64,000 nucleotides of DNA from positions 10,592 through 74,591 of the forward strand of contig JAKLFF010000004.1 in NCBI GenBank assembly GCA_022711335.1, in the 5' to 3' direction. The stretch comes from Patescibacteria group bacterium. Lineage in GTDB: Bacteria; Patescibacteriota; Minisyncoccia; Moranbacterales; UBA2206. Below are positions 24,292-38,663 of this stretch, in pieces (the stretch's first letter is position 1; each line of letters opens with the position of its first letter). Made by a program: the position numbers and the translations under genes. Under the pieces are notes generated by a model. It searched no databases, had not been told where the DNA came from, and saw nothing but the letters and a program-made list of their open reading frames with translations.

Positions 24292-25233
24292 TTAATTCTT
24301 ATTTAACAGGGTCAAGCAATCAATAATTTCAGAAAAATCTTCCGGAAGCTCCGCTGAAAAGCTATACTTCTTGCCGAATAAGCTAAGCTCTATGCTCCTT
24401 GCATGGAGCATTTGTCTTTTAGCAAATAATCCGTCCTTGCTATTCTTTAGCTTATATATTTTATCGCCTATTATAGGATGGCCGATAGATTTCATATGTA
24501 CTCGAATTTGATGCATTCGTCCCGTTTTCGGACTGGCTTCAATCAGAGAATATTTTTTATATTTTTTTATTACTCCATACTCGGTCAGAGCCAGCCTTAT
24601 TTTTGTCCTGGTTTTTCTTCCGGCAATTATCTGTTTTTTATAGTTGCTTGAACGCGCAATTGATTTTTCAATAGTTCCTTTGCTATTTTCCATTTTTCCA
24701 TAAACTATGGCCAGATATTTTTTTTCAACTTCCCTGTTTTTAAACTTTTTTTTAAGTTCCTCAAAAGTCTTTTGATTTCTGGCAACAATCATGACTCCGC
24801 TCGTATCCTTGTCTAGCCTATGGACAATCCCGGGACGAATTTCGGGTTCATCGCCAACAGATTTAATTCCAGGAAATTCATAAACCAACCAGTTAGCCAG
24901 GGTGTTAGTTTCACTTAATTTTGAAGGATGGACTGAAATCCCAGCTGGCTTATTGATAGCAATAATATTTTTATCCTGATATATGATTTCAAATTTTATA
25001 TTTTTATTGGGAACTAGCTTTCCTGATTCTTTTTCAAAATTAACTTCTATTTCATCGTTTTCTTTCAAAATATAGCTTGGTTTTATTTTTTTATTATTGG
25101 TTAAAACATTGCCATCTTTTATCTTCCTGGTTATCTCTCCACGGCTGATTTTTTCATTAAAAAAAACTTCCTCTTTGAGGAATTTATCAATTCTTTTTCC
25201 TGAACTATTTTTTTCTACAGTTATATTTTTCAT
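24292..25233 (-). CDS. RluA-family pseudouridine synthase with an N-terminal S4 domain (RluD-like)
   Basis: HRLDKDTSGVMIVARN; the true start is the ATG (MKNITVEK...) at 25231-25233; the longer track ORF runs into two tRNA genes. Confidence 0.8.
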   Translation of the reverse strand: MKNITVEKNSSGKRIDKFLKEEVFFNEKISRGEITRKIKDGNVLTNNKKIKPSYILKENDEIEVNFEKESGKLVPNKNIKFEIIYQDKNIIAINKPAGISVHPSKLSETNTLANWLVYEFPGIKSVGDEPEIRPGIVHRLDKDTSGVMIVARNQKTFEELKKKFKNREVEKKYLAIVYGKMENSKGTIEKSIARSSNYKKQIIAGRKTRTKIRLALTEYGVIKKYKKYSLIEASPKTGRMHQIRVHMKSIGHPIIGDKIYKLKNSKDGLFAKRQMLHARSIELSLFGKKYSFSAELPEDFSEIIDCLTLLNKN

Positions 25234-25235
25234 CG

Positions 25236-25319
25236 TGCCCAGAAGAGGACTCGAACCTCCAATCCCTTGCGGGAACCAGTTCCTAAGACTGGCGCGTATA
25301 CCAATTCCGCCATCTGGGC
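25236..25319 (-). tRNA. tRNA-Leu(TAG)
   Basis: 84 nt; long variable arm; anticodon loop CUUAGGA. Confidence 0.75.
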
Positions 25320-25331
25320 ATTTGCAAAGCG

Positions 25332-25415
25332 TGCCTTGAGCGAGACTCGAACTCGCAATCCCTTGCGGGAACATGCTCCTGAAGCATGCGCGTATACCAA
25401 TTCCGCCACCAAGGC
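25332..25415 (-). tRNA. tRNA-Leu(CAG)
   Basis: 84 nt; long variable arm; anticodon loop UUCAGGA. Confidence 0.75.
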
Positions 25416-32755: not shown

Positions 32756-33307
32756 TTAGCCATTAACAATTTTTTCAATTTCCAAAAAAATTTTTTCATT
32801 CCAATTATGGCCAACTTTTCCTAACTCGATTAATTGTATCTTTTTTTCTTTTATTATTTCAGCTGCTTCGTTGTCAAAAAAATGATTATCATTTTTACCT
32901 CTTATTATAATGAGATCGTCTTTTGGAATTTCATCGATGATAGGAAGCGGATCAACCTGCATTAATTTTATCAAATTAATAATCCCCCGGAATATATATG
33001 GAAAACACCTGCTTCTTTTCTTTGTTATTTTTGATCTTTCGAATATTTCATGTTTTATCCATCTAAGAAACCAGTTTGATATTTTTCTTTTGGGCGCAAG
33101 CGGCATTGTTAATATTAATTTCGAATTTTTGTTCTTTTTCCAATTTAAGAGTGCCCAATTGGCGCCTGTACTATATCCGACAATATATTCAGCATCAATT
33201 TTTTGATTGATGTCTATTTTTTCTTTCCAAATATCCAGTCCCGGCCAATTCACTAAATTTTCAACTGTATCCATCCAGCCTGGAATAAAAATTATCTTTT
33301 TTTTCAT
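32756..33307 (-). CDS. Alpha/beta hydrolase-like protein
   Basis: KKIIFIPGW...GYSTGANWAL...; the start ATG abuts or overlaps the 3' end of tRNA-Ala. Confidence 0.5.
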   Translation of the reverse strand: MKKKIIFIPGWMDTVENLVNWPGLDIWKEKIDINQKIDAEYIVGYSTGANWALLNWKKNKNSKLILTMPLAPKRKISNWFLRWIKHEIFERSKITKKRSRCFPYIFRGIINLIKLMQVDPLPIIDEIPKDDLIIIRGKNDNHFFDNEAAEIIKEKKIQLIELGKVGHNWNEKIFLEIEKIVNG

Positions 33308-33380
33308 GGTGGACCTAGGCAGAATCGAACTGCCGCCCGTGCAATGCGAATGCACTGTTCTACCACTAGACTATAGGCCC
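33307..33380 (-). tRNA. tRNA-Ala(CGC)
   Basis: G3:U70 identity pair; anticodon loop UUCGCAU; CCA encoded. Confidence 0.75.
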
Positions 33381-34096: not shown

Positions 34097-34169
34097 TGGA
34101 CCATACCGGGATCGAACCGGTCACCTCATCCATGCCATGGATGCGCTCTACCAGATGAGCTAATGGCCC
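34097..34169 (-). tRNA. tRNA-Ala(GGC)
   Basis: G3:U70; anticodon loop AUGGCAU; no CCA. Confidence 0.7.
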
Positions 34170-34266
34170 CAATATGCTTTCATTAAATATATTTTATCAT
34201 AAGCAACTAAATGTAGTTAGTCAATAAAAATTCAGGCTCGCTGCAGTTTCTGCAACGAGCCTGTTT

Positions 34267-34483
34267 GACACGCCAAAGTACTAAAAAATTAAGCCTCATG
34301 GAACTCTTTACGAAGAGTTTCAAAAAGCTCCTTTACGGAAATTATCCTTTCCGCAAGATACGCGTTTGTTCCGGCAAACGCAAAACCGTAGTGAAACTTT
34401 CCGAGCTTTGCATTTTTCAAAGCGCGCGCAATACAGTAGGGACTGCTTTTCATGAAGCAGGATTTGATGCACTGGTACGGGCA
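34267..34483 (-). other. Conserved C-terminal 72 codons of the FabK/NMO gene, lying downstream of an in-frame TAG
   Basis: Same frame as 34484..35356; translates CPYQCIKSCFMKSSPYCIARALKNAKLGKFHYGFAFAGTNAYLAERIISVKELFETLRKEFHEA*. Confidence 0.6.
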
Positions 34484-35356
34484 CTAGAAGGGCTGTTTTT
34501 TTCCTTCTTTAACTTCTTCCAAAAACTGGTTGTTAATAGCCCTTCCTGGCATGCCCACAGGACTTTTGATGATGACGATATCTTTTTCCTTCGCATCAAT
34601 GTAAGTCCGCTTGAATTCAACGTCGGCATCACACTCACTGGTCGTCACAAAACGAGTGGCCATTTGCACCGCACTCGCGCCAAGATTTAAAAACTTTCTG
34701 ATATCACTGCCGGTATAAATTCCTCCGGCAGGAATAACTGGAATCATACTCTTTCCTTTTTGACAAAATTCACTGACTGATTCAAAAACATCAACTACTA
34801 GCTTTTCCAATGAAAATTCCGGCTTATTAAGATCTTCTGCATTAAAACCAAGATGCCCGCCTGCTTTAGGCCCTTCCACTACAAAAGCGTCTGGCAAATA
34901 ATTAAAATTCTGCAGCCATCGTTTACATAACGCTCTTGCTGCTCGACCGGATGAAACGATGGGTATTAATTTTGTTTTACATCCTTCCTTGAGGTATTTT
35001 GGCAAATCCAAAGGAAGACCGGCGCCAGAAATGATAACATCAATTTTTTCTTCTATAGCCGCATTCACGAGGTCAGAAAAATTCGTGAGGGCCACCATAA
35101 TGTTAACACCCAGAATTCCTTTCGTAGCCTCCCGAGCTCTTCTAATTTCCCGTTTCAAAGCCCTAATATTCGCTTCGATCGAGTTAGAAATAATATCCGG
35201 TTCATCAATTCCAACCATTGCGGCAGCGATCACTCCAATTCCGCCTTCATTTGCAACGGCAGAAGCCAAACCGGAGCCAGAAATTCCCACACCCATGCCT
35301 CCTTGAATAATGGGGAGAGATAACTTTTTTAATAATTCTTTCATTGTCTCAATCAT
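34484..35356 (-). CDS. NAD(P)H-dependent flavin oxidoreductase (nitronate monooxygenase / FabK-like), N-terminal 290 codons up to an in-frame TAG
   Basis: IIQGGMGVGISGSGLASAVANEGGIGVI...; TAG at 34484-34486. Confidence 0.75.
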   Translation of the reverse strand: MIETMKELLKKLSLPIIQGGMGVGISGSGLASAVANEGGIGVIAAAMVGIDEPDIISNSIEANIRALKREIRRAREATKGILGVNIMVALTNFSDLVNAAIEEKIDVIISGAGLPLDLPKYLKEGCKTKLIPIVSSGRAARALCKRWLQNFNYLPDAFVVEGPKAGGHLGFNAEDLNKPEFSLEKLVVDVFESVSEFCQKGKSMIPVIPAGGIYTGSDIRKFLNLGASAVQMATRFVTTSECDADVEFKRTYIDAKEKDIVIIKSPVGMPGRAINNQFLEEVKEGKKQPF

Positions 35357-35477
35357 TTTATTTTATCCTTTTCTGTATAAGGTTTATATTCTGTAACTTT
35401 TAGATTTTAAGGAACTTGATAAGTTTATCACAGAATTTGTTTTATATATAATAAAGTGGTTATAATACAAGAAAGTC

Positions 35478-37334
35478 ATGAATTATATTTACTGTTTTTG
35501 GAGTAAACTCAAAATAAAACCAGATATTTGGTTTTTTTATGGATTTTTATTAACTTTTACTTTTAGTATCCGGAAAGTACTGTTTTACTTTCCAATTAAA
35601 GGAACTTTTAATGAATATACCGGAATATACGTTTATATTTCCGATATTTTTTTATTTTTCACGATGTTATCGTGGATTATACTCATATTATCCAATAAAA
35701 ACATTTATTTGTCAAACTGTAAGTTGTGGATAACTCAACTTATACACAGTTTATATTGTAAAATAGCCCTAGAATTAAAGTTTATTTTTTTTAATCGTTC
35801 AATTAACCTACCAAATAATTATTATGAAAATAGTTCAACTGATAAAGTCTCTAAATGTTCTACACATGCCTTATTACTTTCAAATGTTTCGTCTCTTGAA
35901 AAATGTTCCACGTGGAACATTACATGGAACAAACATGGTATATTCATCATTATTCCATTAGTCATTGTAATATGGTCATTTATATCAATCATATGGTCGT
36001 CTAATCAAACCATAGCTGTTTTTAGATCTATCAAACTTTTTGAGTATTTTTTGTTATATTCATATATTGCATTTAGACTTGTTCCATTTATTAAATCAAA
36101 AGTATGTTCCACATTTGCTTCACAAATTGTTCCACGTGGAACAATTTTTATGGGATGGAATAGTATAATGGTGATTATTATAATAATTGGCTTATTTCAG
36201 TCAATAATTGGAATCATCCACTTCATTGATCAACACTCAATTGGCCTTTTTTGGCTTAAAGAAAGCATAATTTCACCTGATATCGCTGGCGTAGCCAAAA
36301 TTGTTATAAATGGCCAGAAATATATCAGGGCCTATGGCCTATTTCCTCATCCCAATATTCTGGGTGGATTTTTGTTGTTTTCAATTATCATTACACTCAT
36401 GTATTACAGAATGTTCCATGCTTGCCGTGTAACATCTAATTGTTCTACGCCTGCCCCGTTTAATGTTCCACGTGGAACAATTCTCAATTCCCTTATCCTC
36501 GTCCAATCCATCGCATTTTTTTTAACATTTTCTAAATCAGCCATTCTGGGACTGACAATTTCCCTGTTTTATATGTATATTGCTCCTCATCTGGTTAGTG
36601 CGACTAAAATGTTCCACCCCATAAAACTTCAAAATGTTCCACATGGAACAATTGGAAGTAATGGGGCAGGCGTGGAACATTTCAAATCCCTAGACAGTAA
36701 AATGTCTTTAAATAATATAAAGCATGATCGTAATTTAAGAATTGCGTTATTAATATTTCTCATAATTATTCTGACTTTCTATCTATCATGGACAACCGTT
36801 GACTCAATGATCCGAAACTCAATTGAACAGCGTATAATCTATCTCAATGTTTCACGTGGAACAATATTGGCCAATCCAGTTCTTGGCATTGGAATGGGCC
36901 AATTCGTTCCCAATATGCAAAAATATACCGCTAATCTTGAACTATGGCAATTTCAGCCTGTTCATAACGTATTTTTACTAATTTGGTCAGAGTTGGGGAT
37001 AGTTGGATTAGGCTTTTTTACATATTGGATGTACAAAATGTTCCACATGAAACACAAAACCCTCTCTCCTTTACAAGGAGAGGGCTGGGATGAGGTAAAT
37101 AAGGTTACAAGCGAAACAAATGATAGGGAAGTAGCTAATTCTGATAAATCTATATTACAAAATAAAAGCAATTCTTTGTCAAGTGGTATAACCCTTCGGT
37201 ATTTTAAGGCAATTCTTCTTGGATTCATTTTTATAATGCTTTTTGACCACTATTTTTGGGATATCCAGCAGGGGAATATCATGCTTTGGATGACGATGGG
37301 ATTTATTGCTGGATTGAATAAAAATATTACATAA
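35478..37334 (+). CDS. O-antigen ligase (Wzy_C/WaaL-like) family membrane protein carrying multiple in-frame palindrome insertions
   Basis: Polytopic; ...YGLFPHPNILGG..., ...QPVHNVFLLIWSELGIVGL...; frame intact across 618 codons. Confidence 0.55.
   Translation: MNYIYCFWSKLKIKPDIWFFYGFLLTFTFSIRKVLFYFPIKGTFNEYTGIYVYISDIFLFFTMLSWIILILSNKNIYLSNCKLWITQLIHSLYCKIALELKFIFFNRSINLPNNYYENSSTDKVSKCSTHALLLSNVSSLEKCSTWNITWNKHGIFIIIPLVIVIWSFISIIWSSNQTIAVFRSIKLFEYFLLYSYIAFRLVPFIKSKVCSTFASQIVPRGTIFMGWNSIMVIIIIIGLFQSIIGIIHFIDQHSIGLFWLKESIISPDIAGVAKIVINGQKYIRAYGLFPHPNILGGFLLFSIIITLMYYRMFHACRVTSNCSTPAPFNVPRGTILNSLILVQSIAFFLTFSKSAILGLTISLFYMYIAPHLVSATKMFHPIKLQNVPHGTIGSNGAGVEHFKSLDSKMSLNNIKHDRNLRIALLIFLIIILTFYLSWTTVDSMIRNSIEQRIIYLNVSRGTILANPVLGIGMGQFVPNMQKYTANLELWQFQPVHNVFLLIWSELGIVGLGFFTYWMYKMFHMKHKTLSPLQGEGWDEVNKVTSETNDREVANSDKSILQNKSNSLSSGITLRYFKAILLGFIFIMLFDHYFWDIQQGNIMLWMTMGFIAGLNKNIT
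35903..37060. repeat. Array of at least 7 copies of the palindrome (A)ATGTTCCACGTGGAACA(TT), plus half-sites and an associated GCCTGCCCC submotif
   Basis: Perfect copies at 35903..35920, 36125..36146, 36465..36480; near-perfect copies at 36631..36652, 36846..36865, 37036..37056; half-sites at 36104, 36411, 36607, 36671. Confidence 0.8.
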
Positions 37335-37569
37335 AAATATTTTCTAAATTGTTTCCATCTTTTTCCCAGTTAATTGGATTTTTAAAAATATATTCGCGAA
37401 TTTTATTCAATTCAATTTCATTTCGAATGATACGATCATAAAAAGACCGTTGCCAAATATTTGTAATACAGGAAATATTTTTTGATTTCATTAATTGAAT
37501 ATATTCTACGGCTGATTTGGATTTAAACGTTTGGATTATTTTTGATAATAATCCAATTTGATTAGAATT

Positions 37570-37651
37570 TTGTAGGGACAGACCTTATGTCTGTCCTGAA
37601 TTTTTTATTTGTATTTTTTTATTTTGGGCGGACACAAGGTCCGCCCCTACA
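37570..37651. repeat. REPIN/BIME-like 82-bp element, copy L (TIR TTGTAGGG/CCCTACAA, two 8-bp-stem hairpins)
   Basis: GGACAGAC-CTTAT-GTCTGTCC and GGGCGGAC-ACAAG-GTCCGCCC. Confidence 0.6.
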
Positions 37652-37905
37652 TTTCCGATAATCTCTATGATCAAATGAACATGGTTTGGCATTATTATGT
37701 TTTCATCTAAAAATACACTTGGAGAATAATTTGAAACATTATTTAAATTTTTTAAAATAATCTTTCCCACATCATTCAAAACCATTTCTGTATTTTTAAT
37801 TTCACCAAAAAATTCTTCACGATTTTTTGTACAGATGGTAATAAAATACATTCCTTGCTGTGAATAATCATAACTATTGAGGCGATTTAATTTACGGTTT
37901 TTCAT
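37585..37905 (-). pseudogene. Truncated REP-associated tyrosine transposase (RAYT / IS200-like TnpA), N-terminal half only
   Basis: YDYSQQGMYFITICTKNREEFFGEI...MPNHVHLIIEI, then the reading frame runs into the REPIN copy; the catalytic C-terminal Tyr region is missing. Confidence 0.6.
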
Positions 37906-37916
37906 TGGAAATATGG

Positions 37917-38663
37917 CTATTTTACCCTTACCTCCGGCAGATTATCCCAAGCTAACTCAAACATCCACTTTAAAGTATTATTAATCTCCGCGCTTTCAAT
38001 GATCACTGCCATTTGTTCTTTGGAAGAAATAAGCGCGACTTTTTGATGGCCGTACACATCCACTTCCACTGAAAAAGGATATTTATCTTTTTTAATTAGT
38101 TTACAGACTCGCAATTGTTGCTGGTCTCTCGCCACTAATGATTCTTCCAAATATTTTGTTCCCGGAAGAATCGCCCGCACGCGCACGCCCTTCTTCATTC
38201 TTTTTTTGATATACCATTCGATCCAATCTTCACCCAAAACATCTCGGACATCTTCCGAACCAAATGCCAAAATTTCACCGGAATATTTCAGCGCATCGTC
38301 ATATGCTTCCATGAGTCCTTCCTTACCTTCATAAAATCTAATCTTCGGTTTTGTGCCTTTGACGTTGTAGATGGATTTCAACTGCGGAAGGATTTCTTCA
38401 AAAAGGCTTTCTTTTTTTTCAAGGTCTTTTTTTATTTTCTCCGGATCTTCGCCGATGAATAATCTTTTCTTTCCACTAAGCGCCTGAGACACAAGGCCGT
38501 CTTTTTGCAGATCAAGAAGAATGTCATAGGCGGTGGTTCTTTTGATGTTGGCCTTCCGGGATATGTCTATTACCGACGCCCCGCCCAATTCCAAAGCCGC
38601 CAGATATACATCTGCTTTTCGGCCATGGAGGCCAAATTGTTTGAGAATTTGTCGGGTTTCCAT
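37917..38663 (-). CDS. TrmB-family HTH transcriptional regulator (copy 1)
   Basis: N-terminal HTH ...DVYLAALELGGASVIDISRKANIKRTTAYDILLDLQKDGLV... plus a TrmB-like C-terminal domain. Confidence 0.65.
   Translation of the reverse strand: METRQILKQFGLHGRKADVYLAALELGGASVIDISRKANIKRTTAYDILLDLQKDGLVSQALSGKKRLFIGEDPEKIKKDLEKKESLFEEILPQLKSIYNVKGTKPKIRFYEGKEGLMEAYDDALKYSGEILAFGSEDVRDVLGEDWIEWYIKKRMKKGVRVRAILPGTKYLEESLVARDQQQLRVCKLIKKDKYPFSVEVDVYGHQKVALISSKEQMAVIIESAEINNTLKWMFELAWDNLPEVRVK

Follow-up and report, generated by a model that had tools for sequence, protein, structure and literature searches.

A FabX-like flavoenzyme gene of a Candidatus Moranbacteria bacterium is interrupted by an in-frame TAG at codon 291, and we regard it, with a probability of roughly 0.86, as a young pseudogene that arose through a recent CAG-to-TAG nonsense mutation and was lost in parallel in a sister strain group. 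Five observations bear directly on this reading: the TAG is real, it is the derived state, TAG is a normal stop codon in the window (the whole 64,000-nucleotide stretch of DNA analysed here), a second and independent lesion is present in the same gene, and no intact allele of the species was found.

The interrupted reading frame

The open reading frame (ORF) 34484..35356 on the minus strand begins with an ATG at 35356 and encodes 290 amino acids up to ...EEVKEGKKQPF, after which it ends in TAG (34486..34484). Re-reading of the frame and of the listed translation agrees with an earlier sequence-only reading of this DNA on both the stop and the end of the protein. On the coding strand, the premature stop is flanked as AAACAGCCCTTC-TAG-TGCCCGTAC. 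Beyond it lie another 64 sense codons in frame, up to a TAA at 34291..34289 (minus strand); the earlier count of 72 codons was eight too many, and its placement of the TAA at about 34267 was off by 22 nt. The interval 34267-34288 is untranslated spacer ahead of a terminator-like hairpin. The features of the locus, with the evidence for each, are:

34484..35356, minus strand: 5' part of the gene, 290 codons and the premature TAG; predicted FMN-binding TIM-barrel part of an NMO/FabX-like flavoenzyme (translation; Pfam NMO; PDB FabX, 2e-73; exact product on 14 contigs)
34484..34486, minus strand: premature stop TAG at codon 291, derived from CAG (Gln) by a coding-strand C-to-T change at window base 34486 (strain and species comparison)
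34289..34483, minus strand: 3' remnant, 64 in-frame codons and the original TAA (34289..34291); most of the predicted [4Fe-4S]-binding subdomain (translation; homology)
34433..34483, minus strand: CX3CX3CX7C motif at codons 292, 296, 300 and 308, the four predicted [4Fe-4S] ligands (FabX alignment; 58 homologs)
34532..34534, minus strand: codon 275 (AAC), intact in the window; base 34534 is deleted in the sister strain group (comparison with L001, L106 and L107)
34298..34300, minus strand: codon 353, CAT (His), a derived non-synonymous change in the remnant; Gln in the sister strain group and in all close species (strain comparison)
34223..34263, minus strand: terminator-like hairpin with a T-rich tail (stem 34263..34233), 26 nt past the original TAA (terminator scan of 34150..35520)

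The frame past the stop translates as CPYQCIKSCFMKSSPYCIARALKNAKLGKFHYGFAFAGTNAYLAERIISVKELFETLRKEFHEA, starting with CPYQCIKSCFMKSSPYCIARALK and closing with ...LRKEFHEA. When read through with X at the stop, the product has 355 amino acids, and its residues 10-349 match Pfam NMO with an E-value of 1.5e-59. Taken by themselves, the 64 residues past the TAG give an ungapped alignment with the C-terminus of a homolog from Desulfobacteraceae (P0016) at 66 per cent identity (E = 7e-27). That the family's C-terminus is encoded downstream of the stop was thus correctly recognized from the sequence, and its conservation, as measured by this alignment, is far above chance. We also considered a separately translated C-terminal piece and rejected it: the frame has no ATG after the TAG until codon 302, which lies past three of the four cysteines.

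The terminator-like hairpin has 14 pairs, nine of them G-C, and its stem is kept in L001 despite adjacent indels. It was the one terminator-like site found in 34150..35520, and no such site lies in the scanned interval directly 3' of the TAG. The hairpin may mark the original end of the transcription unit, shuffled sequence also yielding about one site (mean 1.2).

A FabX-like enzyme with a predicted iron–sulfur subdomain

The sequence-only reading had labeled the gene FabK/nitronate monooxygenase. The NMO family assignment holds, with a score of 202.5 bits against a cut-off of 28 for Pfam NMO (PF03060), a match that spans residues 10-349 of the read-through product and positions 8-329 of the 331 in the profile. 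The FabK part of the label does not: the score against the NCBIfam FabK equivalog TIGR03151 is 150.2 bits, far below the cut-off of 453.1. The best solved relatives are the Helicobacter pylori FabX entries 7E1Q and 9LT5 (2e-73, residues 10-348 aligned), whereas FabK structures match with E-values of 1e-22 to 1e-29 (best 3.5e-29). By these comparisons, the gene stands nearer to H. pylori FabX than to FabK.

FabX (HP0773; PDB 7E1Q/7E1R/7E1S and 9LT5) is a decanoyl-ACP dehydrogenase/isomerase that carries FMN and a [4Fe-4S] cluster, and the gene studied here encodes the same predicted NMO-type TIM barrel and C-terminal subdomain. In FabX, the C-terminal [4Fe-4S] subdomain comprises residues 267-363 and its ligands are C300, C304, C308, and C320; mutation of any ligand cysteine other than C304 destroys the cluster, destabilizes the protein, causes loss of FMN, and abolishes activity (PMC8626469). 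FabK shares Pfam NMO (PF03060) and the FMN barrel with our gene, but it has an NAD(P)H-binding region where the protein here has the Fe-S subdomain, and FabK-type relatives function without an Fe-S cluster (PMC8626469).

In the alignment with 9LT5 and 7E1Q, the TAG codon falls on A299 of FabX, directly ahead of ligand C300, and C292, C296, C300, and C308 of our protein align with C300, C304, C308, and C320 of FabX. By these four cysteines, the encoded protein belongs with the FabX type, and their columns are invariant in 58 homologs. Because all four cysteines lie 3' of the TAG, the translated product lacks every predicted cluster ligand. Two differences from FabX stand beside these similarities: the loop ahead of the fourth cysteine is four residues shorter, and the gene is interrupted; its family membership is read from its sequence. 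Homologs with 64–72 per cent identity are widespread in Desulfobacterota and other anaerobes, and relatives with 48–65 per cent identity occur in Bacteroidales and others. With these 48–72 per cent relatives spread so widely, the family extends beyond FabX sensu stricto. No fatty-acid-synthesis (fab) genes are found nearby; the neighbors are a Wzy_C-like gene, tRNAs, idi, and the gene of the CCA-adding enzyme.

The stop codon is present in independent datasets

The exact 290-amino-acid product was called on 14 contigs, and the TAG with identical surrounding DNA occurs in at least nine independent datasets from JGI, ENA, and Logan (two JGI projects, three ENA assemblies, and four Logan run assemblies for the retrieved loci with the exact product). 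Seven of these loci (L003-L009) have 100 per cent identity across the 1518 bp surrounding the gene. For L004-L009, identity with the window is also 100 per cent from end to end of the locus, and L002 differs from the window by two gaps only. L003 differs from the window at 13 of 8842 bases, all of them outside the gene, and still has the TAG; a further TAG variant, L108, has low coverage and carries K287R. Beyond the prior plausibility of a mistake in a metagenome-assembled genome, nothing favors a sequencing or assembly error at 34486, one of the options that the sequence-only reading had named. With the same base recovered by different groups and pipelines, the divergent L003 and the low-coverage L108 included, we consider such an error virtually excluded.

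Two strain groups carry two different lesions

All seven members of the 90-per-cent-identity cluster around the protein are truncated (286–301 amino acids), and they are not all truncated in the same way. Group A (the window, L002-L009, L108, P0124, and P0125) has TAG at codon 291 and His at 353. In group B (L001 from JGI, L106 from ENA, L107 from Logan, and P0122), both positions are Gln, the codon at 291 being CAG. Group B lacks one A in codon 275 (base 34534), which turns ATTAACAAC into ATT-ACAAC, 48 nt upstream of codon 291. The frame after the deletion reads ...GRAITTSFWKK...NPAS*, and its shifted end is ...GRAITTSFWKKLKKEKNSPSSARTSASNPAS*. The deletion is found in L001, L106, and L107, as well as in P0122, and we take it to be real because the first three are independently produced assemblies. 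DNA of group B is about 97–99 per cent identical to that of group A, and the flanks of L001 are 96.5–98.8 per cent identical to the window, which places L001 in the same species.

Codon 291 is CAA or GAA in five sister species whose proteins are 80–85 per cent identical, and the position is occupied by K or R in the wider family (58-homolog alignment). With CAG in conspecific strains and CAA or GAA in sister species, the option of a very recent nonsense mutation is the one that gains support. Outside a recombination-like tract in L106 and L107, groups A and B differ in the whole gene by three changes (the nonsense change, the deletion, and Q353H), and strains within group A differ by at most 0.15 per cent. 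No intact allele of the species was found among 5.8 billion protein clusters, the best full-length match being only 85 per cent identical. This distribution suggests that the immediate ancestor held an intact gene with CAG and that each group broke the gene separately. The sequence-only reading had counted intact related strains as evidence against it; the related strains do have a sense codon, CAG, at the site, but their gene carries its own one-base deletion at codon 275 and is not intact. An independently broken relative favors gene loss more than an intact relative would. The locus thus has the marks of a unitary pseudogene, with a reproduced lesion set against intact, constrained orthologs and an independent lesion in a sister lineage. 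No secondary decay has been seen so far in either allele.

The tract in L106 and L107 (L106:1510-2415; L107:637-1542) consists of 11 substitutions within 80 nt (codons 85-111, 35024..35102), 10 of which fall on third positions; elsewhere in the gene, these loci show no substitutions other than the lesions. It looks like a short recombination import from a related species. Another locus, L054 (Ga0302252_1004797), was the only close match in a scan of JGI metagenome contigs. It matches window positions 38356..34538, being identical through codon 114 and then about 25 per cent divergent up to codon 273, and the contig ends at 34538, before both lesions. Its divergent part has no close relative among the retrieved sequences (best 84–85 per cent overall), and L054 is a genuine mosaic allele or else a chimera made in assembly. 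A scan of GTDB species representatives found no conspecific or congeneric genome, and the best matches, from other phyla, are 63–65 per cent identical.

Selection on the gene and state of the remnant

Among the sister species, pairwise omega is about 0.04–0.12 in 14 of the 16 measurable estimates (the two outliers, 0.014 and 0.20, are C-terminal), values that indicate strong purifying selection on the gene in these species. Relative to the nearest intact species, dN of the interrupted gene is 0.07–0.10 downstream of the TAG and 0.10–0.16 upstream of it; with dS against the intact species above 1 or undefined (saturated), this comparison, by dN only, speaks for constraint over the long term and cannot date the lesion. 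Lineage-specific residues number 2 of 50 downstream and 5 of 197 upstream, intact relatives falling in the same range, and this count is uninformative for decay because the lesion is so young.

The remnant keeps every column that is invariant in the 58 homologs and has neither a second stop nor an indel. Its only change since the split from the CAG strains is Q353H, which is non-synonymous, and the TAG strains, at 99.85–100 per cent identity, give no power for a test of selection. The youth of the lesion accounts for the intact state of the remnant, since 192 nt of neutral sequence have had too little time to change, and that state is therefore not evidence of translation. The polymorphisms of the broken alleles outside the recombination-like tract are all non-synonymous: A99T (P0124), K287R (P0125 and L108), and Q353H. 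This agrees with relaxed constraint, in numbers too small to test.

Genomic neighborhood and public record

Several proteins of the window, among them GyrA, Idi, and the CCA-adding enzyme, match NCBI proteins HRZ95016-HRZ95024 exactly (Candidatus Moranbacteria bacterium, P5262_00395..00440). The accessions step from HRZ95021 (Wzy_C-like, tag _00410) to HRZ95022 (idi) with no protein between them, and the NMO gene, three tRNAs, and idi take up exactly the five locus-tag slots that lie between _00410 and _00440. This numbering suggests that the NMO gene was tagged without a protein, that is, that it is already annotated as a pseudogene in NCBI. The order of the Wzy_C-like gene, the NMO gene and, further on, the genes of the CCA-adding enzyme and YjbQ is common to the contigs of the closest intact homologs (P0001, P0002, and P0005), of which P0001 is the closest intact protein with Gln at the TAG site. 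This shared gene order argues for vertical inheritance of the NMO gene in the species group.

Several other features of the neighborhood were observed. At about 37330-37930 of the window (compared with L003:3367-3981), ORFs of 106 and 54 amino acids take the place of a GDSL lipase gene that is present both in L003, which is 99.85 per cent identical, and in the sister species locus L011. The 106-amino-acid ORF (37585-37905, minus strand) bears the NCBI name 'glucose-6-phosphate dehydrogenase' (HRZ95020.1), which is implausible for its size. ORF 35478..37334 on the plus strand, whose product is a 618-amino-acid Wzy_C-like membrane protein, contains six copies of a palindromic motif of about 20 nt (AAAATGTTCCACGTGGAACA) at 35900-37054 without a break in the frame. 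The 14-mer core of the motif has five matches at up to one mismatch against zero expected, and the motif yields the recurring peptides VPRGT, CSTWNI, and FHVEQ in several frames. The tRNA-Ala(cgc) gene at 33307-33380 (minus strand) shares 10 nt with the end of idi and also overlaps the listed start of ORF 32756..33355, for which the public record has a product of 183 amino acids starting at 33307. The listed ORF 24292..25374 contains two tRNA-Leu genes (25235-25415, minus strand) and must therefore truly begin farther downstream.

TAG usage and alternative explanations

The stop codons of the 66 non-overlapping ORFs of at least 80 codons in the window are TAA (45), TAG (13, or 12 besides the NMO gene), and TGA (8). 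Of the eight TAG-ending genes that were inspected, four match a Pfam model to or nearly to its end, one is without a Pfam match, and the remainder cover their models only in part. Inspection of the ORFs agrees with the sequence-only reading that idi ends in TAG, and this TAG directly adjoins the tRNA-Ala gene (33307..33380), so that reading through it would translate a tRNA gene. In a comparison of all adjacent in-frame segment pairs in the window, one stop interrupts just one conserved gene, the NMO gene. Of the 15 tRNAs in the window, none is a tRNA(CUA), and an Rfam scan of the window returned tRNAs only and no recoding element. The 121 nt at 34380..34500 have no significant RNA fold (z = -1.66; 15 of 200 shuffles are at least as stable).

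Nothing specific favors a genome-wide sense meaning of TAG or the insertion of pyrrolysine, and we give this explanation next to no chance. TAG ends too many other ORFs, half of the inspected genes reach or nearly reach the end of their Pfam models, idi would run into a tRNA, one conserved gene alone is interrupted, and homologs have Q, E, K, or R at the site, that is, no conserved special residue. The earlier conclusion that the window does not indicate a genome-wide code change stands. The sequence-only reading had also allowed for programmed readthrough or recoding of this one UAG. Under that explanation, leaky or programmed readthrough at codon 291 by a near-cognate tRNA (e.g. tRNA-Gln), or by a suppressor encoded elsewhere, would give some full-length, cluster-bearing enzyme, and the C-terminal part would still be under selection. 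The 64 downstream codons are intact and family-like, and Gln, the ancestral residue, is what near-cognate tRNAs usually insert at UAG. With the terminator-like site 3' of the original TAA, the mRNA would still include the remnant. An undecayed remnant, expected for a very young lesion, fits continued translation equally well, and this is the point that counts against the pseudogene reading. The case shares with known UAG recoding systems (pyrrolysine, viral leaky stops, and phages recoded from TAG to Gln) an in-frame UAG followed by an intact homologous frame, here with an ancestral Gln. Unlike in those systems, the stop is absent from conspecific and congeneric orthologs and varies within the species, no stimulatory structure was found downstream, no tRNA(CUA) is present in the window, and TAG is an ordinary stop in the neighboring genes. 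The frameshift of group B is, moreover, beyond rescue by stop readthrough, and the youth of the lesion explains the intact remnant without selection. We therefore consider readthrough at this codon very unlikely.

The truncation itself could be tolerated or adaptive, with a 290-amino-acid FMN barrel that keeps or gains a useful activity and two groups that converged on dropping the Fe-S subdomain. The lesions at codons 275 and 291 both lie in the last 23 per cent of the gene, inside the equivalent of the FabX subdomain (residues 267-363); the first 274 codons are untouched, the FMN barrel is intact, and FabK-type relatives act without an Fe-S cluster (PMC8626469). The chance of such positions is about 0.05 if lesions land uniformly, and two lesions are too few to establish a non-random position. 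Loss of the cluster in FabX, however, destabilizes the protein and costs it its FMN (PMC8626469), and the variants in the retained part in the TAG group (A99T in P0124 and K287R in P0125) are only non-synonymous, which points to relaxed rather than purifying selection. We judge this explanation improbable, and neither it nor low-level natural readthrough has positive evidence behind it. An A7 run (GGAAAAAAACAG, 34496-34502, minus strand) lies between the deletion site (34534) and the TAG (34486), and slippage on it could restore the frame of the deletion allele, which is pure speculation. A variant that joins these elements is a long shot: both groups would have converged on removing or down-tuning the [4Fe-4S] subdomain, with the TAG allele leaking a little full-length protein through near-cognate Gln and transcriptional slippage along the A7 run (34496..34502) perhaps rescuing the frameshift allele. 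If true, such convergent down-tuning would amount to a population-level 'dimmer switch' on an oxygen-sensitive enzyme.

A probable young pseudogene, lost in parallel

The course of events that we propose begins with a FabX-like, NMO-family flavoenzyme with an FMN TIM barrel and a C-terminal [4Fe-4S] subdomain, which would have been inherited vertically among Candidatus Moranbacteria species. A single C-to-T transition would then have changed codon 291 from CAG to TAG in the lineage of the window. Translation would halt one residue ahead of the first cluster cysteine, giving a 290-amino-acid product without the Fe-S subdomain, and by analogy with FabX this product should be unstable and inactive; it is the predicted inactivity that makes the locus a young pseudogene. 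The mutation would have become fixed in a nearly clonal, widely sampled population, too recently for the remnant to decay, and the sister strain group would have inactivated the same gene separately through the one-base deletion in codon 275. From this we infer that selection on the gene is relaxed in the species, in which the enzyme appears to have become dispensable.

A feature of this kind is ordinary and already known, and in this instance it is apparently annotated already. Parallel pseudogene formation in reduced or host-dependent genomes likewise involves independent point lesions in the same gene of sister lineages, with intact, constrained orthologs elsewhere, and the organism here, a small-genome bacterium of the candidate phyla radiation, resembles those cases. 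We see no difference in kind from them, except that this one has been caught unusually early, before secondary decay.

An in-frame stop with a perfectly conserved downstream sequence mimics recoding, and comparison of strains shows it to be a nonsense mutation too young to have decayed, with no bearing on the genetic code. The locus offers a small, clean case of parallel gene inactivation in a bacterium of the candidate phyla radiation whose sister species keep the gene under constraint. That both known strain groups have disabled the same FabX-like Fe-S flavoenzyme hints that the enzyme is dispensable in the niche of this species.
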